Assembly (NCBI GenBank): GCA_965214485.1
Contig: CBDCBW010000015.1
Coordinates: 338,000-401,999, forward strand
Source of the DNA: Rhodothermales bacterium
GTDB taxonomy: Bacteria > Bacteroidota > Rhodothermia > Rhodothermales > JANQRZ01
DNA: 64,000 nucleotides
Direction of reading: 5' to 3'
A program made the position numbers and the translations under genes. The notes below the pieces were generated by a model. It saw only the letters and a program-made list of their open reading frames with translations. It searched no databases and was not told the DNA's origin. This document shows positions 12,045 to 42,423 of this stretch, one piece after another (position 1 is the stretch's first letter; every line of letters begins with the position of its first letter).

Positions 12045-12188
12045 ACCCAATCGCTGAGTTTGTGCGCCCTCCTCCACGTCAAGTCATCCCCGCGAAGGCG
12101 GGAAACCAGGCGAGGGTTGAGCCACGCGCCCTCGCCGTATGGATTCCCGCCTGCGCGGGAAGGACTCAGTCATTCAGAGAAATGGTAT
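12043..12188. repeat. MITE-like ~146-bp element, copy 1 (second copy at 40853..41012)
   Basis: About 90% identical by eye to 40853-41012. Terminal inverted repeats ATACCnAATCGCTGA / TCAGAGAAATGGTAT. Internal hairpins CCCGCGAAGGCGGG and TCCCGCCTGCGCGGGA. Confidence 0.8.
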
Positions 12189-12205
12189 CAGAGTGTGTCT
12201 GTCTC

Positions 12206-15770: not shown

Positions 15771-16244
15771 TTATCGGGATGCCTCTACTTGCACTATGGC
15801 CGTGCCCTGGTCTTGACCGAATGTTGGACTACGCCCACTATATACCATGTAGTTAAATAGGAAAAACCCTGGTTCAGGACCTGTGTCGAAGGTGACAATA
15901 CCCTCGTCGTTGCTATCAGTAATCTCTCCCAGCGCTGTTCCAGTGACAGCAGCGATCCCACCCAAATACAGGGTGTCGCCATTCGCATCGTTATCGTTGG
16001 CAAGAACATCCACAGAGACTGCCCTGTTGACGGTTGCTCTCACATAGTCAGGTTGAGCTCTGGGAGGACTGGGAGGTGCCTCCTTCGAATCACTAGCAGA
16101 TTCTCCACCGAGTGGAAGTATCCCAATTCTTAGTTGAGCGAGACCTACGAGCAGACCAAGTACCCCAACTGGAAGACCCAGAGCCGTATGCGTGCTAGGT
16201 AGCGACCATCTCAGCCATTGCTTACGAGAGGGGATTGAACTCAT
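15771..16244 (-). CDS. Membrane-anchored protein with a cadherin/VCBS-like Ig domain
   Basis: Start MSSIPSRKQW at 16244, one TM helix, and VSVDVLANDNDANGDTL, a motif typical of VCBS/cadherin-like repeats. The local sequence has visibly lower GC. Confidence 0.55.
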   Translation of the reverse strand: MSSIPSRKQWLRWSLPSTHTALGLPVGVLGLLVGLAQLRIGILPLGGESASDSKEAPPSPPRAQPDYVRATVNRAVSVDVLANDNDANGDTLYLGGIAAVTGTALGEITDSNDEGIVTFDTGPEPGFFLFNYMVYSGRSPTFGQDQGTAIVQVEASR

Positions 16245-16260
16245 ACGCGCAGGAGATACG

Positions 16261-16449
16261 TTATCGCTTGCCGGTCGCCCCCGTACCGGAGACTCCCGCC
16301 GCTCTCGGCTTGAGTTGCACAACGTTCCGCCCGTCCTCATCTTGCCTCTTGCGAAGGTCCCGGCAGATCGCTTTCACGTCAAAACCGAATCGTGCAGCGT
16401 ACTCCTCGCGGGCCTCACGCACCTCGGCAACAATGGGATCATCTTTCAT
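16261..16449 (-). CDS. Small protein downstream of a PIN gene (possible antitoxin partner)
   Basis: 62 aa from ATG 16449 (MKDDPIVAEVREAREEYAARFGFD). Lies 5 nt downstream of the PIN-domain gene stop. Confidence 0.45.
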   Translation of the reverse strand: MKDDPIVAEVREAREEYAARFGFDVKAICRDLRKRQDEDGRNVVQLKPRAAGVSGTGATGKR

Positions 16450-16453
16450 AGGG

Positions 16454-16927
16454 CTACGCCTCCAAGAGTTCTTCGGGGGTGCATAGGATGGGCGGTTCGC
16501 ATCCACTTGAACGGCACACCCACTCTATCTTGTTTCGCATCGCGGCGTTGGCGATGTGCTTGCAGTTCCACGTCAACAAATACTCCATGCCGTGGATGGC
16601 AGCTGTAGCGATGTGGACCGCATCCAGGGCCGCTTTTTGCGGAAGAGGCCCTTCGCGGAGCAGGCGTTCAGCGATCTCTTCTACGTCTTCGGCGATGTCG
16701 AGGAGCGGCAGAAGAGAGAGTGCCGTAAGCCTAGACTCGGCTGCTGTCTTGTCTCCCCGACCGGCCTCATCGAGAACTGGTTTTGAGGTGTAAAGCGTGA
16801 AGTCCCCACGCCTGTCATGCCACCACCGGTCCGTGATCTGCTGATGGGCCGCGACAATGAGGTCCGCACTGGGTCGAGACGTGAGGTAGCCAACGACACT
16901 GGTTTCGATGTAGACCTTCGGCTTCAT
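16454..16927 (-). CDS. PIN-domain protein (VapC-like toxin)
   Basis: 157 aa from ATG 16927. MKPKVYIETSVVGYL has a conserved acidic residue; DAVHIATAAIHGMEYLLTWNCKHI is typical of PIN domains. Confidence 0.7.
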   Translation of the reverse strand: MKPKVYIETSVVGYLTSRPSADLIVAAHQQITDRWWHDRRGDFTLYTSKPVLDEAGRGDKTAAESRLTALSLLPLLDIAEDVEEIAERLLREGPLPQKAALDAVHIATAAIHGMEYLLTWNCKHIANAAMRNKIEWVCRSSGCEPPILCTPEELLEA

Positions 16928-17001
16928 AAACCAAAGGTACTCAGGTTCAGGGCGCGCGGTCTCGGTAGCTTGCGGCCCCTCGCCTCCGACACCCGCCCCC
17001 G

Positions 17002-18639
17002 ATGCGCCTCCTCCTTGTCTCTCTCCTTCTGCTCCCCTTCCTTCTGCTCCCCGTCGCCGTGTCCGCCGTCGCACAGCCCGCGCCTGCCGATCCCGTCGGC
17101 CCTGCCGGCTACCGCCCCGGCGTCGACGCCGAGCGCTACACGTTCCGGCTCGGCCTCACCGACGCCTCGGACCGGATCGAGGGCGAGGCCGACGTCGCGG
17201 TCCGCTTCACCGCCGCCGGCCTCCCCGCGCTCGTGCTCGACCTCGTCGGGCCGAGGGCGGACGGCACCGGGATGACCGTCGGGCGCGTCACCGAGGACGG
17301 CCGGCCGGTGGCCTTCGAGCAGACCGACACCGCGCTGCGGATTCCGCTCGCCACGCCGCCGGCACCCGACGAGCGGCGGACCTACACCGTGGGCTACGCC
17401 GGGGTCCCCGCCGACGGCCTCGTCATCGCCACGAATCGCCACGGCGACCGGACGTTCTTCGGCGACAACTGGCCCAACCGCGCCCGCCACTGGCTCCCGA
17501 CGGTCGATCACCCCTCGGACAAGGCCCTCATCGAGTGGGCCGTCACCGCGCCCGACCACTACCAGGTCGTGGCGAACGGGCGGCTGCGCGAAGAGACCGA
17601 CGTGGGCGGCGGCCTCCGCCTGACGCGGTGGGCCTCGACCGCCCCGCTCGCCACCAAGATCGCGGTCGTCGGCGTGGCCCGATTCGCCGTGGACTACGTC
17701 GACGAGGTCGGCGGGGTGCCCGTCGCGTCGTGGGTCTATCCGCAGGACCGCGAGGCCGGGTTCTTCGACTACGCCCGCGCCGAGCGGGTGCTGGAGGTGT
17801 TCACCCTGCTCCTCGGCCCCTACCCCTTCGCCAAGCTCGCGAACGTGCAGTCCACGACGCGCTACGGCGGGATGGAGAACGCGAGCGCGATCTTCTACGA
17901 CGAGAACTCGGTCACCGGCACGCGCTCGTCGGAGAGCCTGATCGCGCACGAGGTGGCGCACCAGTGGTTCGGCAACGCCGTCACCGAGCGCGACTGGCCG
18001 CACCTGTGGCTGAGCGAGGGCTTCGCGACCTACCTCACCCACGTCTACCACGAGTTCACCTACGGCCGCGACGCCCTCGAAGCCCGCCTCCGCGCCGACC
18101 GCGACCGCGTCGTCGCCTTTGCCCAGGCGCAGCCGACCCGCCCGCTCGTGGACACGACCTACGCCGCCCCGACCGACCTCCTCAACCCGAACTCGTACCA
18201 GAAGGGCGGGTGGGTGCTCCACCTGCTCCGCCGGCATGTCGGCGACGAGGCGTTCTTCGACGGGCTGCGCGCGTTCTACGACCGGCACCGGGGCGAGAAC
18301 GTGACCACCGCCGACTTCCGCCGCATCATGGAGGACGTCTCCGGGCAGGACCTCGGGACCTTCTTCGCGCAGTGGACCGAGCGCCCCGGCGTCCCCCGCC
18401 TCGACGCAACCTGGAGCTGGGGCGACGGCACCCTCAGCCTCGACCTCCGGCAGGGCGGCGAGGTGTGGGCCTTCCCGCTCGACGTCGGGATCGTGACGGC
18501 AGAGGGCGTGCGCGTTGAAACTGTGACGGTAGATGAATTGACGGAGACCGTGGCGATACCGCTCGACGCACCGCCGCAGGACATCGTTCTCGATCCGAAC
18601 GTGAACCTGCTGGCCGCGCTCTCGCTCCGTGCGGAATGA
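17002..18639 (+). CDS. Secreted M1-family zinc metallopeptidase (aminopeptidase N-like)
   Basis: 545 aa. Signal peptide, GMEN exopeptidase motif (YGGMENAS), HEVAHQWFG zinc motif and WLSEGFATY. Confidence 0.9.
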   Translation: MRLLLVSLLLLPFLLLPVAVSAVAQPAPADPVGPAGYRPGVDAERYTFRLGLTDASDRIEGEADVAVRFTAAGLPALVLDLVGPRADGTGMTVGRVTEDGRPVAFEQTDTALRIPLATPPAPDERRTYTVGYAGVPADGLVIATNRHGDRTFFGDNWPNRARHWLPTVDHPSDKALIEWAVTAPDHYQVVANGRLREETDVGGGLRLTRWASTAPLATKIAVVGVARFAVDYVDEVGGVPVASWVYPQDREAGFFDYARAERVLEVFTLLLGPYPFAKLANVQSTTRYGGMENASAIFYDENSVTGTRSSESLIAHEVAHQWFGNAVTERDWPHLWLSEGFATYLTHVYHEFTYGRDALEARLRADRDRVVAFAQAQPTRPLVDTTYAAPTDLLNPNSYQKGGWVLHLLRRHVGDEAFFDGLRAFYDRHRGENVTTADFRRIMEDVSGQDLGTFFAQWTERPGVPRLDATWSWGDGTLSLDLRQGGEVWAFPLDVGIVTAEGVRVETVTVDELTETVAIPLDAPPQDIVLDPNVNLLAALSLRAE

Positions 18640-18748
18640 CGTTCATGGCAAAGCCCGGACCCGCTGACGCAAACGCGCAGCAGGACCTGGCTTTGCCGTT
18701 CGGGTAGGGGCAGGTTTCAAACCCGCCCCTACAACGCTTCCATCAACC

Positions 18749-18905
18749 TCACGCGATCAGCGGGGCGATCACGAGCGCGACGACCGCGATGAGCTTGAGC
18801 AGACGCCCACTCGGACCCAAGGCGTCCTTGCCGTAGGCGACACCGTCGAAGGGCACACGCCGCCCTCGATGCGCCCCGCGTTGTCCCACACGCCGCCGGA
18901 AACCC
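18749..18905 (-). pseudogene. Degenerate remnant of the hppA 3' end (copy 1, internally deleted)
   Basis: TCACGCGATCAGCGGGGCGATCACGAG... aligns with the real hppA end at 29898 onward. It is followed by a similar GTAGGGGC...GCCCCTAC hairpin as the real gene. Confidence 0.75.
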
Positions 18906-18966
18906 CCGGCACTCCCCCTCGTTGATCGCTATCAAAGTGATAGCACCCACCATCCGGTTTTCCCTT

Positions 18967-19203
18967 ATGGCTCAACTCCTGATCCGTGGTCTTGAAGACG
19001 CGACGGTCGAGCGCCTCAAGGCCCGGGCACGGGCGCGCAACCGCTCGCTCCAAGCCGAGACCCGCCGCATCCTCGAACAGGCCGCCGCCACCGACCCCGA
19101 CAGCTTTTGGTCGCAGGCTGATGCGTTCCGCCGTCATCTCGCAGCGAAGGGCGGTCCCGTGACAGACACCACGGCCGACCTCCGAGAGGACCGAGACCGG
19201 TGA
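18967..19203 (+). CDS. RHH-type antitoxin (FitA/VapB-like)
   Basis: 78 aa from ATG 18967 (MAQLLIRGLEDATVERLKARARARNRSLQAE). Its stop overlaps the start of the PIN gene. Confidence 0.8.
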   Translation: MAQLLIRGLEDATVERLKARARARNRSLQAETRRILEQAAATDPDSFWSQADAFRRHLAAKGGPVTDTTADLREDRDR

Positions 19204-19622
19204 GGCCGCTCATCGTCGATGCGAGCGTGGCCGCGAAGTGGCTCTTCGAGGAAGAGCACAGCGAGGCCGCCGGTCGGCTCCGGGCCTACGCCTTCGACCT
19301 CCATGCTCCCGACTTCGTGCGGGTCGAGTTGGTGAACGTCGTCGCCAAGCACGAGCGGCGGGGTGCCCTCACCACGGCTGAGGCCCTGGAGGCGTCCCGC
19401 CTCATTCTCGCGCTCCCGCTCCAGCTTCATGCGTGGCAGGACCTGCTCGGCCCGGCCTTCGACCTAGCCCTGGAGACGAAACGGAGCGTGTATGACTGCC
19501 TTTACCTCGTCCTCGCCGTTGCTCTCGATGGGACCCTCGTGACCGCGGACCGGAAGTTTCACGCCACGCTCCCTGGAGCTCATGCTGCCCGCCTGCTCTG
19601 GGTCGAGGACATTCCGGCCTGA
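19200..19622 (+). CDS. vapC: PIN-domain toxin VapC
   Basis: 140 aa. GTG start overlaps the antitoxin stop (GTGA). Motifs LIVDASVAAKW and YDCLYLVLA...LVTADRKF. Confidence 0.85.
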   Translation: MRPLIVDASVAAKWLFEEEHSEAAGRLRAYAFDLHAPDFVRVELVNVVAKHERRGALTTAEALEASRLILALPLQLHAWQDLLGPAFDLALETKRSVYDCLYLVLAVALDGTLVTADRKFHATLPGAHAARLLWVEDIPA

Positions 19623-19744
19623 CGCACACGCTGCGCCCGCAGCAGAAAGCCCGGCCCCGCCAACGCAACTGCGCAGCAGGACCGGGCTTTGCCGTTCAGG
19701 TAGGGGCGAGTTTCAAACCTGCCCCTACAACGCTTCCATCAACC

Positions 19745-19995
19745 TCACGCGATCAGCGGGGCGATGACGAGGGCCACCACCGCGATCAGCTTCACCAGGA
19801 TGTTCAGGCTCGGGCCCGAGGTGTCCTTGAGCGGGTCGCCCACGGTGTCGCCGACGACGGCGGCCTTGTGGACCTCGGTGCCCTTGCCGTAGGTGACCCC
19901 GCCGAAGGTCACGCCGCCCTCGATGCGCTTCTTGGCGTTGTCCCACGCACCCCCGGTGTTCGACTGGAAGATCGCGGGGCACGCCCGAGACCGCC
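19745..19995 (-). pseudogene. Remnant of the hppA 3' end (copy 2, about the last 78 codons)
   Basis: Track ORF 19745..20014 translates to ...[69 protein letters not shown]. This is near-identical to the HppA C-terminus encoded at 29898-30130. There is no N-terminal body. Confidence 0.9.
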
Positions 19996-20015
19996 CGCCC
20001 CGATGAGATAGCAAG

Positions 20016-20049
20016 AGGCCCTGCCGACGGCGAAGAGTCGGCAGGGCCT
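20016..20049 (-). terminator. Hairpin terminator downstream of the subtilase-like gene
   Basis: AGGCCCTGCCGAC-n8-GTCGGCAGGGCCT. The same hairpin recurs at 24725-24758. Confidence 0.7.
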
Positions 20050-20091
20050 CTGAGTCAGGACACCTGCTGGGTCAGAGCATCTGCTCCCGCC

Positions 20092-22551
20092 TTAGCGCAG
20101 CAGCGTCACCCGCTCTGTGCCGACGAAGTCCCCCGCCGTGAGGCGCACGACGTAGACCCCGCTCGGGAGGCTGCGCCCGTCGAAGCGCGCCGTGTGATGA
20201 CCGGCCTCGTGTGGTCCCTCGGCGAGGCGGGCGACCTCGCGCCCGACGAGGTCGTAGACGGTGAGCCGGACCTCGGCGGCCTCGGGCAGCGCAAAGCGGA
20301 CCGTGGCTCCATCGCGGAACGGGTTCGGGGCTGCGCCCGAGAGCGCGTACGCTGCTGGCAGTGACGGTTCGGCACGCGCCGCCGCCGTCTCTCCAGTTCC
20401 AATATCCTCTCCGTTTATGCCAGTGCCTTTGCCGCTGACGAGGTAGATGGTCCGTGTGGCTGAGGCTGTCGTGCCGTCGCTGTCGGTGACCCTGACGCGG
20501 AGTCGGAAGGTGGGGGGGCTGGTCTCCGAGATGCGGAAGGAGAGTTGGGAGCCGGTACCGGCCGCCCTCCAGATTCCACATATAGGATTGTCTGGGCCTC
20601 GGCTGGCTATTGCACCGCTCCCGAGGTGCTGAAGTCTCGTGGGCAGGCGATGGGGCAGCGGAGTCGCCGCTGATGCCGCAGCCTCCACGCCTGTGTCCCC
20701 GCTGCGGCAATAGGGGTTGCTGCCGGTGCAATCATCGTCGTCGCACTCGTAGAGATATTCCCAGATGTAATCGCGGTAAGACGGTTCCCCTCCACTAAGG
20801 CGAGCCGTCCAGGTGTAATGCTGGCTTCTGACGACCTCGGCCGGGCCTTCGATACGCACGCTCAACGGCGGTCGCGGGGTTACCATCGTGTAGGCCACCT
20901 CGTAGGTCTGGGGGGACCGGGGGAGGTCTCCATACTCTATGATCCGCCCCAGGGCGTCGTAGAAAGTAGCCCTCCAGTAGTAGCCCTCAACGTTGAACCC
21001 TGAAGCGTCCACCGAGGTGACGCTGAGCGACTTGAGGAGAAAGTCGTTCACGCTCTCGTAATGGTTGTCCTCGGCAACGATTCGCGTATCCGTCCCGTCG
21101 CTCTCCGCCCAGCGGGCCCACACGTCGGGGGCGCTCGACGGGGAGATGTCGCCGAAGTTGACGCGTCCGGTAAAGCGCTTGAGTTGCCCGGTCGCTCTGG
21201 CGAACGCACGCCCTTGCGGAGTGAAGTTGCCCCAGTTCGTGAGCGTGACCGTGCGCGAGTCCGCCGTCTGCGTGCTGACGTTCGAGACACCCGTAGCCGT
21301 TTTGTGCCGGAACACGTTGGCTTTGGCGTAGCGGAGCGCGCGTCCGGCGTCCACGACTCCGAAGCCCGTGGCGTCGTCGAAGCCCGCCGTGCCTACGTCG
21401 CGGGCCGTCCGCTGCAAGACCTGCTCAATGTCCTCGCCGGTGAGGTGAAAGCGCCTGGCTTTGATGAGCGAGGCGACACCCGCCGTGATGGAGGCCGCCG
21501 CGACGGTCCCGCCGAAGTCCGTCCGGTAAGCCGAGTTGGATTCGCCCGACGTAGCGACGACGTCCTTCGCCATCGCCGCCACATCCACGTAGGGCCGCCG
21601 CACTGTCTGATCCCAGACAACAGGTTGGTTGGCTTGGTTTAGCTCTACACCGCCGACGGTGACGACGTAGCGGTCGCTGAGCGCGGGAGCGTAGCTGATC
21701 CCGTCGGAGTACGGGCCGTGGTCCCCCATCGGCGCGACGACTACGTCCCCGTCCACGGTCACGGCGCTGGCCGTCTCAACCTGGAAGGCGCGGAATGGTG
21801 TCGGTGGGCTGGAACAGCCGCTCCCGAAGCAGAGGTCTCGGAAGAGCGTGCCGATGGATTCGCTAAGGCTGTTGACCGCGGGCTGAGGTGGATTCGTAGT
21901 GGGGAACTGCTGTGGGAGAGGGTTGGGCGGTGGGAAGTTCTCGGCGGCTATACCGGAGACGGCTCCTTGGCTGAGGTAGTCGTTGAAGAGGCCCGATGGG
22001 ATACTGTAGGTGATAAGGTGTACCTCCACACTGTGATCCTGTCGGGCCTGCGCCATGCGCTCGGCAAGCACCCCCTCACGGAAGCGAAACGTCTCGGAGC
22101 CAAGGTTGAGGAGGTGGCACTCGTCGTCGCCTGAGCTGCACCCCCCTGACTCCAGCAGGCTATACGTCCGTATGCCAGTCTGCCGAGCGACGCCCGCCAT
22201 ACCGAGGGCATTGTTGGTACGGGCTCCGGCGATGCCGGCTGCTTCGGTGGCGTAGCCGAGGCCGGGACGGTCCACGCCGTTGTCTCCGGAAGGCGGTAAC
22301 GCGCGCCCGTCGAGGTCTTCGTGCCCATAGCGGATGCCGGTGAGCGACTGTACGCCGATGCGGGCGTAGGGCGAGCCTTGCGTCACCGCCCACGCCTCGT
22401 CTACGTGGTGGACGTCGAAGAGGTAGTCCTGATCGCCGGAGATGACAAAGGGATCGTTCGTCTGGCCGTAAGCGACGCCCGTCGAGAGACAGAGCGCGAG
22501 AAGGAGGAGAACCGCGTGGCGGTAGCTGGAGTATGGATGTGATCGTGTCAT
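20092..22551 (-). CDS. Subtilase-fold (S8-like) secreted protein lacking the catalytic triad, with a Cys-containing Ig/PKD-like region and a T9SS C-terminal sorting domain
   Basis: 819 aa from ATG 22551 (MTRSHPYSSYRHAVLLLLALCLSTGVAYGQ). Aligns with paralog 24801..27344, but D->Q (IGVQSLTG vs AIIDSGVD), H->Y (GYATEAAG vs GHGTPVAG) and S->V (GGTVAAAS vs GGTSNASP). C-terminus ...VYVVRLTAGDFVGTERVTLLR is a T9SS CTD. Confidence 0.85.
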   Translation of the reverse strand: MTRSHPYSSYRHAVLLLLALCLSTGVAYGQTNDPFVISGDQDYLFDVHHVDEAWAVTQGSPYARIGVQSLTGIRYGHEDLDGRALPPSGDNGVDRPGLGYATEAAGIAGARTNNALGMAGVARQTGIRTYSLLESGGCSSGDDECHLLNLGSETFRFREGVLAERMAQARQDHSVEVHLITYSIPSGLFNDYLSQGAVSGIAAENFPPPNPLPQQFPTTNPPQPAVNSLSESIGTLFRDLCFGSGCSSPPTPFRAFQVETASAVTVDGDVVVAPMGDHGPYSDGISYAPALSDRYVVTVGGVELNQANQPVVWDQTVRRPYVDVAAMAKDVVATSGESNSAYRTDFGGTVAAASITAGVASLIKARRFHLTGEDIEQVLQRTARDVGTAGFDDATGFGVVDAGRALRYAKANVFRHKTATGVSNVSTQTADSRTVTLTNWGNFTPQGRAFARATGQLKRFTGRVNFGDISPSSAPDVWARWAESDGTDTRIVAEDNHYESVNDFLLKSLSVTSVDASGFNVEGYYWRATFYDALGRIIEYGDLPRSPQTYEVAYTMVTPRPPLSVRIEGPAEVVRSQHYTWTARLSGGEPSYRDYIWEYLYECDDDDCTGSNPYCRSGDTGVEAAASAATPLPHRLPTRLQHLGSGAIASRGPDNPICGIWRAAGTGSQLSFRISETSPPTFRLRVRVTDSDGTTASATRTIYLVSGKGTGINGEDIGTGETAAARAEPSLPAAYALSGAAPNPFRDGATVRFALPEAAEVRLTVYDLVGREVARLAEGPHEAGHHTARFDGRSLPSGVYVVRLTAGDFVGTERVTLLR

Positions 22552-22729
22552 GGTGGTACCTGGTCTGGAATAGCAGGGGACATCGTGGCATGTGGCCTCC
22601 GCTCCCACTGAGGCCGGGGCCGCCGCGGCAACGGCGTGCTCCGGTCGGGATCGGGGGCCTCGTTGGTTCAGGCGTGCGTGGGTCTCGTCATAGGCAACGA
22701 GTGGTTGGTTGGAAAGAGATGAAGCCGAC

Positions 22730-23800
22730 TCAGTAACCGAGACGGCCTCCGCTGGGCGGAGGGAGAGGCGGGAACACCGGTACCGAGTCCGGCAGCGCGG
22801 GCCACAGCACGCGCTCCTGCCCCGAGCCGAGGTCGTAGGCGAAGGGGATCCAGCGCGCTCCCGGTCCCCGGTCCACGTCCCGGATGAAGAAGAACGAGGA
22901 GCCGTCGGCGGCCCAGCGCGGAACGTTGCCGCCGAACTCCGTGATGCGCCGCACATCGCCCCCGTCGCTGTTCATCAGGAACAACTGGTCGGCGTTCTCG
23001 ACCTCGCGCTGGAGCACGACCGTCTCGCTGACCGGACTCGGCACAGCAAAAATGGTGTAGATGGAGTCGCTCGGCACGTTGGTGATGTAGCGCCACGCGC
23101 CGGTCGCGAGGTCGTAGCGCGCCCAGTTGCCGTCGTACTCCTCGAAGAGCGGGTCCTCCCGGTAGACAAACTTTTGTCCGGTAACGTAAGTCTCATTTCC
23201 ACCGAGATACGTTGCCTGCATCAGTTCGAGGAGCGGCCCCTCGATCTCACCCGTCTCGGTGTCGAGGATGTAGAGGCCCCGCGCGTAGGCCTGCTGATAG
23301 CCTGTCGAAGCCACTGAGACCAGCAGCCGTCGCCCGTCGGCAAACCACCCGCCCCAGGCAGCGTTCTCGAAGTTGAAGAACAGGCTGTCCGCTCCCGACC
23401 ACTGCCGCGTCTGGCGCGTCTCCAGGTCCAGCGTGTAGAGGTAGACGTTCAGCCCAACCACAACGTTGACGGCGAGGCGTTCCTCACTCGGGTGCCAGAA
23501 GACGCTGCCGGTGTTGACGCCGATGAACTCGGGGTCGCTGCCGTCGGCGTCGACGATCCAGAGCTGCCTGCGCGGGCTGAGTTGCTCGTCCGGCGTGCGC
23601 TGCCGCACGAGGGCGATGCGGCTGCCGTCGGGACTCGGCGCGAACTGCGTCAAGTGCTCGGTGCCAGGGAGGGCGTCGCCGCCGTAGTCGCCCGGCGCGA
23701 AGAGCGGCTCCTCCTCCGGCGGCGGAGCCACGGGCGAGGAGCATCCAGCCACTAGCAGGGGCACAGTGATGAAGCAAAGGAGAGACGGAAGAAGACGCAT
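22730..23800 (-). CDS. PD40/TolB-like beta-propeller lipoprotein
   Basis: 356 aa from ATG 23800 (MRLLPSLLCFITVPLLVAGCSS lipobox). Repeated SPDG/ADG-type blades (SPDGSRIALV, WAADGSSFFF). Confidence 0.75.
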   Translation of the reverse strand: MRLLPSLLCFITVPLLVAGCSSPVAPPPEEEPLFAPGDYGGDALPGTEHLTQFAPSPDGSRIALVRQRTPDEQLSPRRQLWIVDADGSDPEFIGVNTGSVFWHPSEERLAVNVVVGLNVYLYTLDLETRQTRQWSGADSLFFNFENAAWGGWFADGRRLLVSVASTGYQQAYARGLYILDTETGEIEGPLLELMQATYLGGNETYVTGQKFVYREDPLFEEYDGNWARYDLATGAWRYITNVPSDSIYTIFAVPSPVSETVVLQREVENADQLFLMNSDGGDVRRITEFGGNVPRWAADGSSFFFIRDVDRGPGARWIPFAYDLGSGQERVLWPALPDSVPVFPPLPPPSGGRLGY

Positions 23801-23909
23801 ATGGATCAGCGGGGGGGTAGGCGGAGCACACAACTTACCCATGTTCTACAGCGAAGTCCACCGAAAAACTTGGCATTTCCGGGCACCCTTTCCCACCGAA
23901 AGTCCGTGA
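23801..23909 (-). promoter_or_regulatory. Conserved intergenic region between the AraC-like and propeller genes (duplicate at 28417..28530)
   Basis: Nearly identical to 28417-28530 by eye. On the minus strand it contains TGGGTAAGTTGTGTG about 25 nt before the ATG, resembling a Bacteroidota -7 element (TAnnTTTG). Confidence 0.45.
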
Positions 23910-24263
23910 CTAACGCCCCTGCACCCGCCGTCGGTACGCCCGCATCGAGCACCCCACCTCCCGCTTGAAGGCCCGCGCCCCGCTGTCGGCTCGCGCCCAC
24001 CCCACCGCTCGACATACTTCGGCGATCCGCAGGTTCGTCTTGGCCAGTAACCGCTTCGCTTGCTTGACGCGTACCCGCCGGAGGTGGTCGATCAGCGCCA
24101 CCCCGGCCTCCTGTCGGAAGACCCGCTGCAGCGTCCCGACCGGTACCCCGAACGCCTCCGCTATGCCCTCCGGCCCCATGATCCGAGCGTAGTGGCGCTC
24201 TACGTAGACTTGAACTTCTCGAATATCGACGGACACGGCAACCAGGGTTTCTCCAAGAGGCAA
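23910..24263 (-). CDS. AraC-family HTH-only transcriptional regulator
   Basis: 117 aa. Two HTH units (GPEGIAEAFGVPVGTLQRVFRQ, IAEVCRAVGWARADSGARAFKREVG). No ligand-binding domain. Paralog at 28531..28884. Confidence 0.8.
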   Translation of the reverse strand: MPLGETLVAVSVDIREVQVYVERHYARIMGPEGIAEAFGVPVGTLQRVFRQEAGVALIDHLRRVRVKQAKRLLAKTNLRIAEVCRAVGWARADSGARAFKREVGCSMRAYRRRVQGR

Positions 24264-24453
24264 CCCTCATAGACACCCGAAGCCTGCAGACATAACCCTA
24301 TTAACGCAGATGTACAAAGCCCGGCCCTGCCGACGCGACTGCGCAGCAGGACCGGTCTTTTCCAGAAGACGGAGGACAGTAGACGAGAAACGGTGGTGCA
24401 GAGTCCGGCGACCGAGGTAGCTTTCCCAGCTTCGCCTGTCCTCTGTCCTCTGG

Positions 24454-24705
24454 TCAGGCGATCAGCGGCGCAATGACGAGCGCGACGACGGCGATGAGCT
24501 TGACCAAGATGTTCAGGCTCGGACCCGACGTGTCCTTGAGCGGGTCGCCCACGGCGAAGGCCGACGACGGCGGCTTTCGCTGATCGGAGATCAGCGTGGA
24601 CCTCGGTACCCTTGCCGTAGGTCACGCCGCCTTCGATGCGCCCCGCGTTGTCCCACGCGCCGCCCGCGTTGCTCTGGAAGATCGCGGGGCACGCCAGAGA
24701 CCGCC
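24454..24705 (-). pseudogene. Remnant of the hppA 3' end (copy 3, with indels/frameshift)
   Basis: TCAGGCGATCAGCGGCGCAATGACGAG...GGTCGCCCACGG aligns with the hppA end. A foreign insert lies around 24555-24600. It has the same upstream junction (CTGGAAGATCGCGGGGCACGCC) as copy 2. Confidence 0.8.
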
Positions 24706-24724
24706 CAAGCCGACGAATTGGAAA

Positions 24725-24758
24725 AGGCCCTGCCGACTTTTCGCTGTCGGCAGGGCCT
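24725..24758 (-). terminator. Hairpin terminator downstream of the S8 peptidase gene
   Basis: AGGCCCTGCCGAC-n8-GTCGGCAGGGCCT, a duplicate of 20016-20049. Confidence 0.7.
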
Positions 24759-24800
24759 CTGGGTCAGGACACCTGATGGGTCAGAGCATCTGCTCCCGCC

Positions 24801-27344
24801 TTAGCGCAGCAGCGTCACGCGCGAGGTCCCGACGAAGTCTCCGGCGGTGAGGCGCACGACGTAAACCCCGCTCGGGAGGCTCCGCCCGTCGAACCGCGCC
24901 GTGTGCCACCCGGCTTCGCGTGGTCCCTCGGCCAAGTGGGCGACCTCGCGCCCGACGAGGTCGTAGACGGTGAGCGTCACTTCGGCGGGCTCAGGAAGCG
25001 CAAAGCGGACCGTAGCTTCATCGCGGAAGGGGTTCGGGGCTGCGCCGTCGAGCGCGTAAGCCTCCGGGATTGAGGTCCCGCTCCGAGCCTCGGTTCCGTT
25101 TGCAACGGTTGCCCCACCGGAGCCGCCCCTCCCGCCGCTTACGAGATAGATCGTCTTGATGACGGTCTTTGTCGTGCCGCCAGCATCGGTAACGGTGAGG
25201 CGGAGCTTGAACGTATACACCTCGCTGCTGGGAACACGAAACGAGAGAGCCTGCCCACTTCCTGCGAACTTCCAGGTGCCGCAGTCAGGGACGTCTGGCC
25301 CTCGGCTGGAGATAACCGAAGCCGGGAGCCTCTCGGCGACGGAGGACTCCAGCGCCGGGGTCTTACCCCCGCCCGCATCGCGGCAGTAAGGGTTGCTCCC
25401 AGTGCATGAGTCGATGTCGCAATCGTAGTAGTACTCCCAGTGATAGGAGTAGGGCGCGGCCCCGCCGCTAGCGATGCCCGTCCAGGTGTAGCGCCGCCCA
25501 GCGGTGACCTCGGCCGGGCCGGAGATGCTCGCACTCAGCGGAGCCAGCCGCCCTACGACGGTAAAACCGAAGTCAACATCATCTGGAGCCGACGGATAGT
25601 ATGCGTTAATCTGTCGGCCTTGACTGTCACTCGTGACCCAGTAGACGTAGGTCTCGTAGTCGAACCCGGCAGTCGTAACGTTGGTGATGTTGATCCACGG
25701 TTCTTGGTAGAGAGGGTTGCTGTCATCCCACCCCTTAAGACGGCTCATCTTCGCCCAGACCTGGGGCGGCGTCTGGTACGCCCTCGAGAACGAGACGTGA
25801 CCGCTAACGCGGTACTGCCGCACGCCGTAGTATACACCGTTAGCGAGCGGACCACCCCCTGCGGCCCGGTAGAACGTGTGGGAGTGATTCCCCCATGTCT
25901 GCTCTACGGTTCCATCTGTTCGGGTGAAGTGCGTCACCGTGTTGGGAGCTTGGACGAATCGGAGCGCCTCGTAGGCGTTGACCCGGCCATCGCCGTACTC
26001 CGGGTGAAAGTCCTGTCCACCCATCGCCTGCACGTTGTCTGCCGTGCGACGGATGATCTCGCGGAGATCGTCGCCGGTGAGACCGAGGTTCCGGTCCCGG
26101 CTCTCGGAGAGCAGAAGTCCGGCGACGCCTGCCGTCATCGGAGACGCATTGGACGTGCCGCCGAACGACTCCACACCTCCGCCCATCCTGGTGGACGAAT
26201 ATCCTGTACCCGGCGCGACGACGTCGAGCGAGTTGCCATAAGCGGAGAAATCTGTTTTCCGGTCGTCTCGGTTACTTGCGCCGACGGCCATGACCATGTG
26301 GTAGCTGGCCGGTGGTTCGACGTAATAATCGTCATCGAGCCCGTTGTTGCCCGCCGACGCGACAATGAGGACCCCGCTCCGCCACGCGTTCGTGATCGGC
26401 TCTACAATCATGGAGCGGGGGTTACCATTGTAATCATAGGGGTCAGGGAAGATCGGATCGTCAGAGTCCGGGAAGGAGAGGCTTATGTTGATGATGTCAG
26501 CCCCCTCTTGGCGAGCGTAGTCGAAGCCTTGTGCCACATCGCTGAAAAGGTGCTGCCCGCTACAAGGACCTACGCGCACCGGCATCAGTTGGACATCCCA
26601 CATCACGCCGGCTACGTCGCGGTCGTTGTCGGTGATCGCCCCAACCACACCGGCGACGGGGGTGCCGTGACCTTTGCAGTCGTCTGGGTCATCATCGTCT
26701 TGGAAGAAATCGTAGCCCTGGATGACGCGGCTGCGGTCGCCGGGGTCGAGGTCGGGGTGCTCGTAGTCCACGCCGCTGTCGATGATGGCGACGACGACGT
26801 CGCTTCGCCCGGTCTGAATGTCCCACGCTTGCGGAGCGTGGATGTCGTTCCCCGGCGTCTGGAAGTTGTACAACCCCCACTGGTTGTCCGCTTCAAACTC
26901 GGGGTCGTCGGGGAAAGTCGCATTGGAATACATGTAGTAGTCCGGCGACGCAGCGAGAACCTCAGGTGCCGCCATCAGCTTTTCAGCGAGCGCTTCGATG
27001 TCAGTGCCAGCCTCCACTTCCAGGCGATACCACCGCGAGAGGTCTATGAGGTCTACCGTCTCCTCACGCTTCGAGGTGAAGAGGGTATCCTGCGGCATGA
27101 AGTCGCGGAACAGCTTGGTACCTGCGGTGAAGCGCGCCTGCCCAAGCGCCTGCCGAGCGGCGGGTACTGAGGAGAGGTCGGCGGCAGTGAGCGATGGCTT
27201 GACCTGGGGGAGCGCCTCCGGGGCGAGCTTCACGAGGACCACGCCGGGGGCGTAGCGCTCGCTGGAGGGCGTGGGTTGGGCGTAGGCGCTGGCTCCGAGG
27301 ATCATCAGGAGGCACAGCACCGTTGGAAGGGTCGTTCTCAACAT
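24801..27344 (-). CDS. Secreted S8 (subtilisin-family) serine peptidase with propeptide-like N-terminus, Cys-containing Ig/PKD-like region and T9SS C-terminal sorting domain
   Basis: 847 aa from ATG 27344 (MLRTTLPTVLCLLMILGASAYAQ). Intact triad motifs AIIDSGVDYEHPDL, GHGTPVAG, SAGNNG and GGTSNASPMTAG. T9SS CTD ...VYVVRLTAGDFVGTSRVTLLR. Confidence 0.9.
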   Translation of the reverse strand: MLRTTLPTVLCLLMILGASAYAQPTPSSERYAPGVVLVKLAPEALPQVKPSLTAADLSSVPAARQALGQARFTAGTKLFRDFMPQDTLFTSKREETVDLIDLSRWYRLEVEAGTDIEALAEKLMAAPEVLAASPDYYMYSNATFPDDPEFEADNQWGLYNFQTPGNDIHAPQAWDIQTGRSDVVVAIIDSGVDYEHPDLDPGDRSRVIQGYDFFQDDDDPDDCKGHGTPVAGVVGAITDNDRDVAGVMWDVQLMPVRVGPCSGQHLFSDVAQGFDYARQEGADIINISLSFPDSDDPIFPDPYDYNGNPRSMIVEPITNAWRSGVLIVASAGNNGLDDDYYVEPPASYHMVMAVGASNRDDRKTDFSAYGNSLDVVAPGTGYSSTRMGGGVESFGGTSNASPMTAGVAGLLLSESRDRNLGLTGDDLREIIRRTADNVQAMGGQDFHPEYGDGRVNAYEALRFVQAPNTVTHFTRTDGTVEQTWGNHSHTFYRAAGGGPLANGVYYGVRQYRVSGHVSFSRAYQTPPQVWAKMSRLKGWDDSNPLYQEPWINITNVTTAGFDYETYVYWVTSDSQGRQINAYYPSAPDDVDFGFTVVGRLAPLSASISGPAEVTAGRRYTWTGIASGGAAPYSYHWEYYYDCDIDSCTGSNPYCRDAGGGKTPALESSVAERLPASVISSRGPDVPDCGTWKFAGSGQALSFRVPSSEVYTFKLRLTVTDAGGTTKTVIKTIYLVSGGRGGSGGATVANGTEARSGTSIPEAYALDGAAPNPFRDEATVRFALPEPAEVTLTVYDLVGREVAHLAEGPREAGWHTARFDGRSLPSGVYVVRLTAGDFVGTSRVTLLR

Positions 27345-27513
27345 GAGTAGGTTTGGGTTGGTAGACCGAAGTCTGCTTGAGAGAGCATGAGACCCCGGCA
27401 GGCGGTGCGGCAGCGCGAGCGGTCCTGGCAGATCAGACTCGCGCAGTGACACCGGGCCTGTCGGGGGTTTTTTGTTGATGCGATAGGTACCTCGGGACCC
27501 GTAGGTGGTACGG

Positions 27514-28416
27514 TCAGAAGGTGAGTTGCTGTCGGTCGGAGCCGTTGGGAGCGATGCTCCAGAGCACCAAGCGGTCCTGTTCCGGCGCGAGCGCTTGGAA
27601 GACGATCCGCTGCCCGTCGGGCGTCCACGCCGGGTACGCCCCCCCACGCGCGAGCCGCACCAAGCGGCGCTGCGCCGAGCCGTCGGCGCGCATCAGCCAG
27701 AGCGCGAGCCGACCGTCGCCCTCCTGCGCCGCCCACGCGATGTGCTCGCCGCCAGGGCTGAGCGCCGGGTCACGGTTGTAGCGGAAGTCGTTGGCGGTGA
27801 GCTGCACGGGGTTCGCTCTGCTCGTGTCCGAGCGCCAGAGCTGGCCGAGGCCGTCGCCCTGTTCGTCCAGGAAGCCGAAGACGATCTCGTCCCCGTCGGG
27901 GAACCAGTCGGCGGGGCTGGCCCCGAAGCCGAACTTGGTGCGCGTGGTGTCGGCCACATTGATGAACCACAGGCCCACCTCTTCTTGGTTGCCCGAGCGT
28001 CCATAGGAGATCGTCTCGCCCGAGGGCGACCAGCGGGGGAAGAAGGCGCTGCCGTGGTCGGTGAGGTAGCGGAAGTCGCTCCCGTCGGGGCGCACCACGG
28101 CGATGCCGCCCGCCTTCACCGCCAGCCGCTCCCCATCGGGACTCCAGTCGGGACTCCACACCCCACCAGACTTCACGAGACTGCGCTCCCCGCTTGCGAG
28201 GTCGAACACGTAGAGGCCCGTCGGGTAGGCCTCCTCGCGCTCCGGCTCCGCTTCGTAGTGCCAGTAGGCGAGGCTCTTCCCGTCGGGGCTGACGGCAGGG
28301 TAAGCGTCTTCGGGAATGATGGGTGGCGCGGGCGTGGGGCCCCCGCCGCTGTCGCAGCCCATCGGGAGTAACAAGGCAGCAGCGACCGCACAGAAAAGAG
28401 CTAGACGAAAACGCAT
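27514..28416 (-). CDS. PD40/TolB-like beta-propeller lipoprotein
   Basis: 300 aa from ATG 28416 (MRFRLALFCAVAAALLLPMGC lipobox). Blades VSPDGKSLAYW, WSPDGERLAV, WSPSGETISY, WFPDGDEIVF, LSPGGEHIAWA and WTPDGQRIVF. Confidence 0.8.
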   Translation of the reverse strand: MRFRLALFCAVAAALLLPMGCDSGGGPTPAPPIIPEDAYPAVSPDGKSLAYWHYEAEPEREEAYPTGLYVFDLASGERSLVKSGGVWSPDWSPDGERLAVKAGGIAVVRPDGSDFRYLTDHGSAFFPRWSPSGETISYGRSGNQEEVGLWFINVADTTRTKFGFGASPADWFPDGDEIVFGFLDEQGDGLGQLWRSDTSRANPVQLTANDFRYNRDPALSPGGEHIAWAAQEGDGRLALWLMRADGSAQRRLVRLARGGAYPAWTPDGQRIVFQALAPEQDRLVLWSIAPNGSDRQQLTF

Positions 28417-28530
28417 ATTGACCGATCGGGGGGGGGTTAGGCGGAGCACACAACTTACCCATGCCCTGCAGCGAAGTCCACCGAAAAAACTTGGCATTTC
28501 CGGGCACCCTTTCCCACCGAAAGACCGTGA

Positions 28531-28884
28531 CTAACGCCCTTGCACCCGCCGTCGGTACGCCCGCATCGAGCATCCCATCTCCCGCTTGAACGCTCGCGTT
28601 CCACTGTCGGCTCGCCTCCACCCGACAGCCCGACACACCTCGGACACCTGCAACTCTGTCTCGGCCAAAAGCTGCTTTGCCCGCTCGACGCGCACCTGCC
28701 GGAGGTAGTCCGTCAGCGCCACCCCAACTTCCCACCGGAAGCTCCTGCGCAGCGTCTCGACCGGCACACCGAATGCTTCGGCGACCGCCTCCGGCCCCGT
28801 GATCCGAGCGTAGCGGCGCTCTACGTAGACTTGAACTTCTCGAATATCGACGGACACGGCAACCAGGGTTTCTCCAAGAGGCAA
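28531..28884 (-). CDS. AraC-family HTH-only transcriptional regulator
   Basis: 117 aa. Close paralog of 23910..24263, with the same first 22 residues (MPLGETLVAVSVDIREVQVYVE). Confidence 0.8.
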   Translation of the reverse strand: MPLGETLVAVSVDIREVQVYVERRYARITGPEAVAEAFGVPVETLRRSFRWEVGVALTDYLRQVRVERAKQLLAETELQVSEVCRAVGWRRADSGTRAFKREMGCSMRAYRRRVQGR

Positions 28885-29020
28885 CCCTCATAGACACCCG
28901 AAGCCTGCAGACATAACCTCAGCGATGCAGATAAAAAAGCCTGGCCCCGCACGTAGCGAGACCGGGCCTCGTCCAGCGAACCGCCCGCCGGGCTCGCGCG
29001 GTGAGCGAGAGGGGCACTCT

Positions 29021-29503
29021 TTACTCCCCCGCCAGGCGCAGCACCTCCCGCACCAGAGCGATGTCCACGCGGAACCCCACCGCTTGAAGCTCCTCGACCA
29101 GCGGCCCTACAGCCTCGACGAGGCCGCTTCGCTTGGCGCGGACGAGGAGGCCGAGTGTGCCGACGGTCCGGACCCCAAGCGCCTCTGCGCACCGCCGGGC
29201 ACCTCGGTCGTCCAGCACGGCCGTAGCTTCCGGGTGCTCCAGCACGTAGGCCAGCACCGCGCTCTCACCGGCCCCTACGTCCCAGGCTGCTATTCGCTGC
29301 GGGACCGGACGCGGCGGCTCGACCTCCAGGGCCGCCGCGTCGAGCCACCGCCGCGCGGGGTCCGCCGGTGGAGCCGCTGCGACCTCTTCGGCCACGGCCG
29401 CCGGGACGACGAGTTGCTCCCCCAGCTCCAGCATTAGATCGGCCCGCCCGATGTGCGCGAGCACGATCAGCGGCGAGGCGTCGGCGACGTAGCGCTCAGC
29501 CAC
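29021..29503 (-). CDS. DUF3368-type PIN-like toxin
   Basis: GTG start at 29503 overlaps the antitoxin stop by 8 nt ([19 protein letters not shown]...). C-terminal [15 protein letters not shown] motif is typical of DUF3368. Confidence 0.7.
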
Positions 29504-29750
29504 CGTCCACCTCGCGCCGCAGCTCCTCCGGTGTCGCCTGGAACGGGGAGACGCCGAAGCGGGCGAGGGAGTGGAGGAACGCGGCACGCGTGAGCCCGGC
29601 TAGCTCGGCGGCTCTCGCCTGCGACAGCCGCCCCTGCCCGTACCACGCCGCCGCCGCTGCGAGCCGCATCTCGGCGGCGAGCTCAGCCGGGCTGCTCCGC
29701 AGCGCGGCAACGGCGTCCTCGGGCAGGTCGATGTGGATGCGGACGGGCAT
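29496..29750 (-). CDS. UPF0175-family antitoxin
   Basis: 84 aa. [11 protein letters not shown]...[35 protein letters not shown] matches the UPF0175 pattern. Confidence 0.7.
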
Positions 29751-29856
29751 GGCGGCGGCCTGTGGAGGGAGAGTGGTACCGCCCTTTGCTGCTCCGGGTC
29801 CCGACGACGAAGCCCGGTCCTGCGGTGCACAGGTCCGGGCTTCGCCGCTCAGGACT

Positions 29857-29884
29857 GTAGGGGCGAGGCATGCCTCGCCCCTAC
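29857..29884 (-). terminator. hppA terminator hairpin
   Basis: Perfect palindrome GTAGGGGCGAGGCA/TGCCTCGCCCCTAC, 14 nt after the hppA stop. Related hairpins follow hppA remnants 1 and 2. Confidence 0.75.
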
Positions 29885-29897
29885 ACGCTTCCGCCGC

Positions 29898-32012
<2,115 letters not shown>

Positions 32013-40713: not shown

Positions 40714-40852
40714 CGTTCTCAGCCGCGCACCGCTTCCCAGAACTCGCGTGCAGCGGCGGGTAATCTGCACCCGTCAGGGCTCCCTGCGAAGGAGCCGATC
40801 CTACCCCATCCGTTTGATCCGCGCGCGATTGTTTATACCAACGCGATTGCTT

Positions 40853-41012: not shown

Positions 41013-41039
41013 TAGCGACCCCACACCCCCCAATGCGTA

Positions 41040-42259: not shown

Positions 42260-42423
42260 TCAGCGCCTGAACCCATGCCGTCCGAGGTTTCCCCGCGTCG
42301 GGGTTGGGAGCGAATTCCTGGAACTCCCGCGCTCCGACGACGGCGTGAGCGCCGAAGGCGAGGAGGGTGAGGGTACCGGCGATGACGGCGAGGACATTCA
42401 TTCCTCAGTTAAAGGTTTCAAGG

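Follow-up and report, generated by a model that had tools for sequence, protein, structure and literature searches.

Here we examine a 64,000-nt stretch of the genome of a Rhodothermales bacterium (GenBank assembly GCA_965214485.1, contig CBDCBW010000015.1, positions 338,000 to 401,999; hereafter the window, with all coordinates given as positions within it), and specifically the tract behind hppA, the gene for an H+-translocating pyrophosphatase. In this tract, partial copies of the hppA 3' end and its terminator alternate with accessory genes, and the best explanation is that recombination behind hppA assembled four accessory cassettes into an array. The evidence supports the view that the copies are scars of recombination that put foreign cargo behind hppA while the gene was kept whole. 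Our best reading of the mechanism, which we hold at about even odds (probability roughly 0.5), is that single-crossover insertions were combined with unequal homologous exchange, the portable homology being provided by the conserved gene end together with the terminator.

Layout of the tract and the copies of the hppA end

We gathered 39 genome loci with hppA as the query; individual loci are referred to by numbers such as L025. The copies of the hppA end are labelled R0 (the native end) to R4, and negative positions count back from the end of hppA. The tract fills the gap between the convergent hppA and M1 peptidase genes. Read along the minus strand from hppA, the order is R0, a UPF0175/DUF3368 toxin-antitoxin (TA) pair, R4, module A, R3, module B, R2, a FitA/PIN pair and R1, which abuts the M1 peptidase gene. 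The hppA gene is full length, and R0, R3, R2 and R1, together with the hairpin-only R4, bound the four cargo blocks. The repeats and the genes at the two borders are:

29898-32012, minus strand: intact hppA, 704 aa (Pfam H_PPase, E = 3e-267; GC content at third codon positions, GC3, 0.98)
29898-30189, minus strand: R0, the last ~292 nt of hppA (29805-30189 with both hairpins)
29805-29897, minus strand: native downstream flank of hppA, with hairpin 1 and hairpin 2 (alignment; RNA fold -81 kcal/mol, z = -8.4)
about 29857-29884, minus strand: hairpin 1 of R0, GTAGGGGC...GCCCCTAC
29811-29841, minus strand: hairpin 2 of R0, GAAGCCCGG...CCGGGCTTC
28930-28970, minus strand: R4, a hairpin-2-type terminator only (hairpin ~28938-28968; alignment with L025, terminator scan, fold)
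24316-24722, minus strand: R3, with hppA part 24454-24722, a long hairpin of the L002 type at about 24365-24453, and hairpin 2 at 24318-24358 (fold z = -5.1)
19646-20012, minus strand: R2, with hppA part 19745-20012 (from about -292 to the stop), hairpin 1 at 19700-19728 and hairpin 2 at 19648-19688
18650-18905, minus strand: R1, with hppA part 18749-18905 (from about -213), hairpin 1 at 18704-18732 and hairpin 2 at 18652-18692 (fold z = -7.3)
17002-18639, plus strand: M1 peptidase gene (Pfam), the core gene that bounds the tract, as it does in L025 and L001 (tblastn synteny)

A preliminary description of this DNA, made from its letters alone, had placed three partial copies of the hppA 3' end downstream of the intact gene, and self-BLAST recovers all three where it put them. 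R2 (19677-19991) matches 29830-30146 with 88.5% identity over 322 nt (E = 8e-110), R3 (24458-24716) matches 29902-30160 with 80.5% (E = 2e-59), and R1 (18681-18830) matches 29830-29982 with 77% (E = 8e-21); a second part of R1 (18826-18897) aligns to 30035-30107 with 84% identity. The condition of each copy had also been described correctly, as judged by alignment. R2 is largely in frame, with 76 codons and the stop downstream of a 2-nt deletion, and an 89-aa open reading frame (ORF) across it (19745-20014) matches Pfam H_PPase at positions 579-645 of 645 (E = 1.5e-32). R3 carries indels (a 3-nt deletion, a 15-nt deletion, an 18-nt insertion and a 1-nt insertion), and R1, the most decayed copy, is internally deleted, with ~65 nt missing. 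What had been taken for an upstream breakpoint common to R2 and R3, between CTGGAAGATCGC and GGGGCACGCC, is instead the 2-nt deletion: hppA homology goes ~45 nt further, to about -292.

Hairpin 1 (GTAGGGGC...GCCCCTAC) is present after R0, R2 and R1 and absent after R3, in agreement with the earlier statement that the terminator is repeated with two of the copies. That statement had missed a second and stronger hairpin, hairpin 2 (AAAGCCCGG...CCGGGCTTT), which follows all of R0-R3 and just beyond which homology stops sharply. The stem of hairpin 2 is GC-rich, 13-17 bp long, and lies between an A-tract and a T-tract; the hairpins of the hppA flank look like a bidirectional terminator between convergent genes. 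We also considered hairpin 2 as a genome-wide repeat resembling repetitive extragenic palindromes (REP) and rejected this, as the strict motif occurs only five times in the 64 kb, two of these in the tract, and a looser pattern gave noise. Rfam and tRNA scans gave no match in the tract.

Two of the repeats deviate from this common form. R3 has a different, long hairpin between its stop codon and hairpin 2, and this long hairpin, hairpin 2 and ~70 nt of the upstream region of the adjoining AraC gene are together homologous to the native flank of the intact hppA in L002. R4 sits after the DUF3368 gene and is orthologous to an hppA remnant with hairpin that lies behind the same TA pair in L025; it is a fifth repeat whose hppA-derived part has been deleted.

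The 5' limits of the copies fall at several points in hppA, about -292 for R2 and R3, about -213 for R1, and about -168 to -171 and about -101 for the two copies in L025. The 3' limit of all copies is identical, just past hairpin 2, and the last ~100 nt of hppA plus hairpin 2 are common to all of them. In R2 and R3, hppA homology ends beside a subtilase terminator hairpin (20014-20049 and 24725-24760, respectively).

Allele mosaics and shared decay among the copies

Comparison of R2 with R0 reveals 94% identity over 229 nt of the coding part; of the 76 codons, 11 have changed synonymously and 2 non-synonymously. Because the changes are almost only synonymous, most of this divergence arose while both sequences ended working genes, and R2 was recently part of one. 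The differences are distributed unevenly along the gene end, as can be seen when R0 and R2 are each compared with the allele of the nearest relative, L011:

-252 to -201: R2 vs R0, 11 substitutions and 2 gaps in 52; R0 vs L011, 3 in 52; R2 vs L011, 10 substitutions and 2 gaps in 52
-200 to -71: R2 vs R0, 1 in 130; R0 vs L011, 6 in 130; R2 vs L011, 7 in 130
-70 to -4: R2 vs R0, 6 in 67; R0 vs L011, 6 in 67; R2 vs L011, 1 in 67

R0 and R2 therefore form a reciprocal mosaic relative to the L011 allele (Fisher p = 0.0066). In the segment from -252 to -201, R0 shares a derived AGC codon with L011, and R2 has TCG at this place, as do L025, L002 and L032. Such a pattern is what one crossover between two diverged hppA-end alleles would leave, and it is the best single support for the replacement gene end that the preliminary description had proposed. 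We also looked for an imported 3' end of hppA by sliding-window comparison with relatives and found no drop in identity; the mosaic is visible only site by site.

Other copies switch alleles elsewhere. R3 is almost identical to R0 over its first ~40 nt and old in its remainder, with the switch at about -195. In L25_a, a copy in L025, the switch lies at about -95, with 3 differences in 76 nt of the 5' part vs 18 in 92 nt of the 3' part. Since the exchange points of R2, R3 and L25_a differ, homologous exchange fits better than one fixed core, although later gene conversion could blur an original core. The decayed copies are also linked by derived indels: R1 shares with both L025 copies (L25_a and L25_b) the change CCTGAAC to GGGC, and R1 and R3 share a 3-nt deletion. 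Indels shared in this way, across two species, suggest that copies were propagated or converted among themselves from a copy that had already decayed. R3, although nearer to hppA than R2, has decayed far more (80% identity and several indels).

The same site in related genomes

The hppA product of the window is 94% identical in amino acids to that of L011, 93% to L025, 92% to L001 and 84% to that of the Rubrivirga locus L007. Gene order in the close relatives is L25, pth and hppA, then, beyond the variable site, the M1 peptidase gene and a TMEM260-like gene.

The content behind hppA differs from one relative to the next. L025 has hppA with its hairpin, the UPF0175/DUF3368 pair, an hppA remnant of ~168 nt with hairpin, a DUF433/DUF5615 pair on the other strand, a second remnant (from -101) with hairpin, and the M1 peptidase gene. 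This array lies on a 3.5-Mb contig of another species and has the same architecture as the window, with partly different cargo. L001 has a gene for a protein with a type IX secretion system (T9SS) domain and one for a dihaem cytochrome c between hppA and the M1 peptidase gene and no hppA remnant; its cargo gene ends in a hairpin-2-type terminator. In L011 the same first TA pair stands behind hppA, followed by a truncated T9SS-domain gene and unrelated genes, again with no remnant. Rubrivirga L007 carries two tandem modules (AraC, a protein of unknown type, and an M12B protease with T9SS domain) and then a DUF433/DUF5615 pair; here the terminator is repeated after hppA and after each module, the same n+1 architecture as in the window, with no coding remnants. 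The preliminary description had named one and the same fixed arrangement in all relatives as the outcome that would speak against it. Instead, L025, L001, L011 and L007 carry differing content behind hppA, and the relatives are thus polymorphic at the exact site, with cassettes present or absent (L001 has no remnant, L025 has two TA cassettes).

Remnants of hppA are confined to the window and L025, with none in 33 other loci, and a strictly empty junction of hppA and the M1 peptidase gene was not found among the loci compared. Homologues of the DUF3368 protein with more than 52% identity came only from the window's own genome and L025, and the search for AraC homologues returned only the window's own genome. 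Exact-protein look-ups of the window's hppA, UPF0175, AraC and P0001 products gave no record. A metagenome scan with the M1 peptidase as query (the patterns TFFGDNW and HEVAHQW proved too general) gave a best match of 58% identity and no locus with hppA nearby.

In L002 (5140-5317), the hppA terminator is followed by the ~70 nt homologous to the upstream region of the window's AraC gene. The ORF after this terminator begins MAAFSLDFRQRILDA... and, by eye, resembles the N-terminus of an IS630-type transposase; the contig ends there, as is common at repeated copies of insertion sequences (IS).

Cargo of the four cassettes

The cassettes range in size from 0.74 to 4.7 kb, the smallest being bare TA pairs. 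Pfam bears out the preliminary annotation of the cargo as TA pairs and AraC/propeller/subtilase modules:

29496-29750, minus strand: cassette 1, UPF0175 antitoxin-like gene (Pfam E = 3.6e-24)
29021-29506, minus strand: cassette 1, DUF3368 PIN-like toxin gene (Pfam E = 6e-14)
24801-28884, minus strand: cassette 2, module A (Pfam; GC3 0.74-0.84)
28531-28884, minus strand: module A, AraC-type helix-turn-helix (HTH) gene (Pfam)
27514-28497, minus strand: module A, PD40 beta-propeller lipoprotein gene (Pfam)
24801-27647, minus strand: module A, S8 subtilase gene with T9SS C-terminal domain, true start probably further in (Pfam)
24725-24760, minus strand: module A, subtilase terminator hairpin GGCCCTGCCGAC...GTCGGCAGGGCC (inverted repeat), with the hppA-remnant junction just downstream
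20092-24263, minus strand: cassette 3, module B (Pfam)
23910-24263, minus strand: module B, AraC-type HTH gene (Pfam)
22730-23842, minus strand: module B, PD40 propeller gene (Pfam)
20092-22956, minus strand: module B, S8-like gene with T9SS C-terminal domain (Pfam)
20014-20049, minus strand: module B, subtilase terminator hairpin (inverted repeat), adjoining the R2 junction
18906-19645, plus strand: cassette 4, FitA/PIN TA pair (Pfam)
18922-19203, plus strand: FitA-like ribbon-helix-helix (RHH) antitoxin ORF, real start about 18965 (Pfam E = 3e-13)
19200-19622, plus strand: PIN toxin gene (Pfam E = 1.3e-11)

The genes of the tract have a GC3 of 0.73-0.85, vs 0.91-0.98 for hppA, pth, L25, the M1 peptidase gene and the TMEM260-like gene, and 0.94-0.98 when only the core genes flanking the tract are taken; the codon usage of the cargo is foreign to the core genes of the host. 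By domain content, the FitA-RHH + PIN and UPF0175 + DUF3368 pairs of the window, and the DUF433 + DUF5615 pairs of L025 and L007, would class as type II TA systems. In PADLOC, the UPF0175/DUF3368 pair (29021-29750) also matches PDC-S70, a candidate system for phage defence (E = 5e-50 and 5e-10). Between R1 and the start of the FitA-like antitoxin lies a perfect palindrome, GCTATCACTTTGATAGC (GCTATCA-CTT-TGATAGC, about 18925-18944), which is probably the operator of the FitA/PIN promoter.

Modules A and B have the same gene content, and their proteins are related to very different degrees: the AraC proteins are 80% identical, the propellers ~25%, and the subtilases 42% over 592 aligned C-terminal residues, of which the last ~110 aa are ~88% identical. 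At the nucleotide level the ends of the modules are 78-90% identical and the interiors ~40%, which is essentially unalignable. This profile argues against a recent duplication and for modules with conserved ends and exchangeable interiors, as is expected if the ends act as recombination anchors. The subtilase of module A matches the whole Peptidase_S8 model (E = 3e-50) and that of module B only its C-terminal half (positions 148-288, E = 7e-9), so the module B gene may encode an inactive protease homologue.

Search for a recombinase or a carrier element

The preliminary description had reported no integrase in the tract, and Pfam applied to all tract ORFs agrees, with no recombinase domain in any of them. 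Neither IntI nor any other tyrosine recombinase was detected in the 64-kb window. In distant Rhodothermales, Pfam Phage_integrase matched 12 ORFs lying 2-6 kb downstream of hppA, which are one orthologous Xer-like gene (loci L014, L019, L022, L024, L027, L030, L034, L037, L039, L017, L008 and L010); in 10 of the 12 loci the order is hppA, a 2-oxoacid dehydrogenase E2 acyltransferase gene, recombinase. A hidden Markov model (HMM) built from these 12 ORFs found nothing in the window or in the ~20-kb hppA loci of eight close relatives (L025, L001, L011, L002, L003, L032, L006 and L007), and the gene is absent from the hppA neighbourhood in the window, L025 and L001. We rejected the 12 recombinases as island integrases: theirs is a conserved syntenic gene, and the genomes that carry it have no hppA duplication.

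As for a carrier, viral contigs, GenBank phages and plasmids yielded no bare hppA end, only full-length hppA genes, which came from giant-virus bins, a likely contaminant and megaplasmids. A limited literature search found no report of hppA as an integration target or of hppA linked with attB or an integrase.

Other repeats in and around the window

A second array lies 12 kb from the hppA tract. At 42421-56976 (plus 47789-47916) we find twelve copies of a ~130-nt repeat with features of integron attC sites: ends of the form (G)CCTAAC/ATAAC ... GTTAT/GTTAGG and a long bulged stem with 6 covarying pairs. The cassettes between them have low GC3 and encode a flavodoxin-like protein, two DUF433/DUF5615 TA pairs, a PD40 protein, a DNA methylase, Mrr and HNH-EVE proteins, an M78 peptidase, an IS200-like Y1 transposase and FTCD_C, with an rve transposase inserted. 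An IS4/5 transposase gene lies at 41469-42251, and IntI was not found in the window. The repeats at 42.4-57 kb look like a chromosomal attC array without its integrase. L025 has a match to the attC model at 288-416 on its minus strand (69 bits, E = 3.5e-16), about 9.6 kb upstream of hppA, which suggests that the attC array is shared with that related species.

A different repeat of ~150 nt occurs at 12039-12191 and 40849-41015 (85% identical, with internal inverted repeats TCATCCCCGCGAAGGCGGGAAACC ... GGATTCCCGCCTGCGCGGGAAGGA), the second copy just before the attC array; it looks like a miniature inverted-repeat transposable element. The AraC genes of L007 each have a repeat upstream that contains GTCATCCTGAGCGGAGCGAAGGATCTCAGCAC and is apparently different. 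On the other side of the M1 peptidase gene, between it and the TMEM260-like gene, is a stretch of low GC (0.57-0.60; 15771-17074) with a Big_9/cadherin-like gene and the gene for a 206-aa PIN-domain protein (GC3 0.64); L025 has a 58% identical PIN homologue at the equivalent place.

Proposed mechanism and alternatives

In the reading we favour, a single crossover would join DNA that carries a partial hppA end, the terminator and cargo to the resident gene end, in a Campbell-type insertion. Such DNA may arrive as a circle that has come out of another array or out of the chromosome of a relative. Each insertion would yield a complete gene, then cargo, then a truncated gene end with terminator. 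Recombination between two direct repeats would yield circles, which could enter again at any of the copies and in any relative with a sufficiently similar hppA end, and repeated insertion together with unequal crossing-over and gene conversion among the direct repeats would add, duplicate, swap and delete cassettes. The exchange would most likely be homologous (RecA-type), by way of the conserved hppA end and the strong terminator hairpin, and not the work of a dedicated integrase. The repeats with their anatomy, the polymorphism among relatives, the foreign composition of the cargo and the mosaics are observed; we infer the circular intermediates, the dependence on homologous recombination and how the DNA moves from cell to cell. 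If a partial gene end recombines by a single crossover, the prediction is that each cargo is followed, not preceded, by its own hppA-remnant junction, and that the 5' limits vary and the 3' limit is constant. The circle model would account for 5' limits that go one per cargo type, for a constant 3' limit at the end of the shared terminator, for the mosaics and the shared decay marks, for the cassette differences between the window and L025, and for the lack of an integrase.

The preliminary description had instead spoken of serial site-specific integration of elements carrying a replacement gene end. The part that stands is that these are recombination scars which placed foreign cargo behind a whole hppA, as indicated by the polymorphism of the site, the GC3 of the cargo, the synonymous changes in R2 and the mosaic. 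The words 'serial' and 'site-specific' lack such support, given the decay order of R3, the shared indels, the differing exchange points, two modules alike only at their ends, and the finding of no integrase in the tract, the window or the eight loci and of no bare hppA end on a phage, plasmid or viral contig.

Several points weigh against single-crossover insertion and homologous exchange. Neither a circular form nor an empty site nor a donor configuration has been directly observed, and hppA remnants occur in only two genomes, the window's and L025, a very small sample. Gene conversion after integrase-mediated insertion could give the same mosaics, a recombinase could be encoded in the genome outside the 64-kb window, and the sharp common boundary at the hairpin would suit a site-specific core there as well. 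The first joining of each cargo to an internal hppA position needs an illegitimate event outside the model, the passage of DNA between cells likewise lies outside it, and the combination of a fresh 5' part and an old 3' part in R3 and L25_a is not predicted by the simplest Campbell scheme, which would need extra conversion.

We regard it as possible, if doubtful, that an integrase did drive the accretion, with recombinase-bearing elements inserting in tandem at the hppA 3' end or terminator and their recombination genes either lost later, as in a cis-mobilizable element (CIME), or with mobilisation in trans. The anatomy of a full gene followed by elements between direct repeats that contain the gene end fits this, as do the sharp distal boundary of all copies at an inverted repeat (hairpin 2) and the polymorphism among relatives, and integration, decay to a CIME and further integration is a scheme described in PMC5704250. 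However, the tract ORFs hold no recombinase domain, the Xer-like HMM is blank in the window and eight loci, and the tyrosine recombinase near hppA in the 12 distant genomes is a syntenic gene that goes with no duplication of hppA. Exchange points that vary between copies, TA-only cassettes of 0.74 kb that are hard to derive by decay independently in two genomes, and the failure to find a bare hppA end on a phage, plasmid or viral contig count against it as well. Local tandem duplication, with the left breakpoint in hppA and the right one after the cargo, and with the duplicated cargo later diverging and being deleted and replaced, seems to us improbable. It would explain why both ends of modules A and B are paralogous, at a period of ~4.7 kb, why R2 and R3 have the same junction and the same 2-nt deletion, why the decayed copies have derived indels in common, and why L007 has two tandem modules. 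Under such a scheme, though, the last unit should meet the original downstream DNA, whereas here every cargo block is followed by a gene-end copy. The cargo blocks are moreover unrelated except for modules A and B, and even these, with ends at 78-90% identity, unalignable interiors (~40% in nucleotides) and propellers at ~25% in amino acids, contradict the simple duplication of one islet that the preliminary description had offered as an alternative. Nor does local duplication foresee that the 3' part of R2 is the L011-type allele and not the resident one, that the flank of R3 is that of the L002 lineage, or that the codon usage of the cargo is foreign.

It is very unlikely that the tract is an artefact of metagenome assembly, with strain variants of the region downstream of hppA strung together. 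The source may be a metagenome-assembled genome, and R2 does resemble an intact allele of a related strain, but R1 and R3 are decayed by indels and so cannot be live alleles, R2 and R3 share their junction with the subtilase terminator, and the same architecture with other cargo occurs independently on the 3.5-Mb contig of another species. We give even less weight to integron-type cassettes, in which the hairpins would be attC sites for an integron integrase. Integrons typically carry TA pairs, each cassette of the hppA tract is bounded by hairpins, and a real attC-like array with DUF433/DUF5615 cassettes lies in the same window. Against this, a covariance model from 11 of the attC-like repeats finds 12 sites at 42-57 kb and none at 18.6-30 kb (best E = 4.2), and on this ground we ruled out the tract as an integron array. 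In addition, hairpin 2 lacks RYYYAAC/GTTRRRY boxes and looks like a GC-rich terminator, attC sites have no counterpart of the hppA coding remnants, and the window holds no detected IntI.

Comparison with known systems

A displaced gene end is routinely taken as the mark of an integrated element, and nearly all well-studied cases involve an integrase and a short core. Elements related to ICESt1, for example, integrate at the 3' end of fda. Tandem accretion of integrative and conjugative elements (ICEs), integrative and mobilizable elements (IMEs) and CIMEs is reviewed in PMC5704250, where Pavlovic et al. 2004 is cited for the ICESt1-related elements found in Streptococcus thermophilus. Among described behaviours, such accretion comes closest to that of the hppA array: tandem elements stand behind an intact protein-coding gene, internal ones have no integration genes, and composite units are able to move together. 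The repeats of these elements, unlike those described here, are short att sites, and at least one partner has a known tyrosine integrase. In the hppA array the repeats are 100-390 nt long, mosaic and variable in their 5' limits, and some cassettes consist of nothing but a TA pair (0.74 kb); repeats bound the cargo beside a full-length gene, and a recombinase was found neither in an element nor beside the array.

Phage 21 and e14 insert inside the 3' end of icd in E. coli, bringing a replacement end of more than 100 nt and leaving the displaced pseudo-end at the far side. The outcome is like that at hppA, and the difference is that one prophage, which brings an integrase of its own and has a defined core, stands there instead of an array of small cassettes. 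In staphylococci, the staphylococcal cassette chromosome (SCC) and pseudo-SCC islands at the 3' end of rlmH (orfX) form series of elements, some without recombinase, bounded by repeats that contain the gene end. These repeats, in contrast to those at hppA, are about 15-20 bp, Ccr serine recombinases are needed, and cargo and phylum are different. At tRNA and transfer-messenger RNA (tmRNA) genes, a displaced 3' gene fragment marks the far end of an island and tandem islands leave several (the logic used by Islander). The target here is by contrast the protein-coding gene of a membrane pump, the fragments are longer, and no integrase was found.

Islands of the SGI1 (Salmonella genomic island 1) type and others occupy the ends of trmE, dusA and yicC (PMC8409611, PMC9035990). 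As far as those accounts describe them, they resemble the hppA array in targeting a conserved housekeeping gene end and in the occurrence of tandem arrays and TA genes, and differ in encoding their own integrase and mobilisation functions and in being much larger. Integron arrays and integrase-less attC clusters share with the hppA array small, mostly promoterless cassettes that are rich in TA genes, bounded by hairpin repeats and variable between relatives. The hppA array differs from them in its repeats, which by the covariance model are gene ends with terminators and not attC sites, in its mixed cassette orientation, and in that no IntI was found.

Implications

On this comparison, the tract is a variant of a known scar type, at a target gene for which a limited literature search found no report, in the little-studied Rhodothermales. 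A broader idea, which we put forward tentatively, is that cassettes can be captured without an integrase, the very conserved end of a housekeeping gene and its strong bidirectional terminator serving as a portable homology block for small circles that are excised, pass between related species and enter again by ordinary homologous recombination. If true, this would amount to an integron-like variable array without attC or IntI, with cargo ranging from 0.74-kb TA pairs to 4.7-kb modules, and it would provide a concrete route for the movement of chromosomal TA pairs. If an integrase is found instead, hppA would join the list of protein-coding genes that serve as integration targets. If homologous exchange suffices, it would help to explain how accessory genes are gained and swapped at hotspots that have no mobile-element genes, and how TA systems spread.

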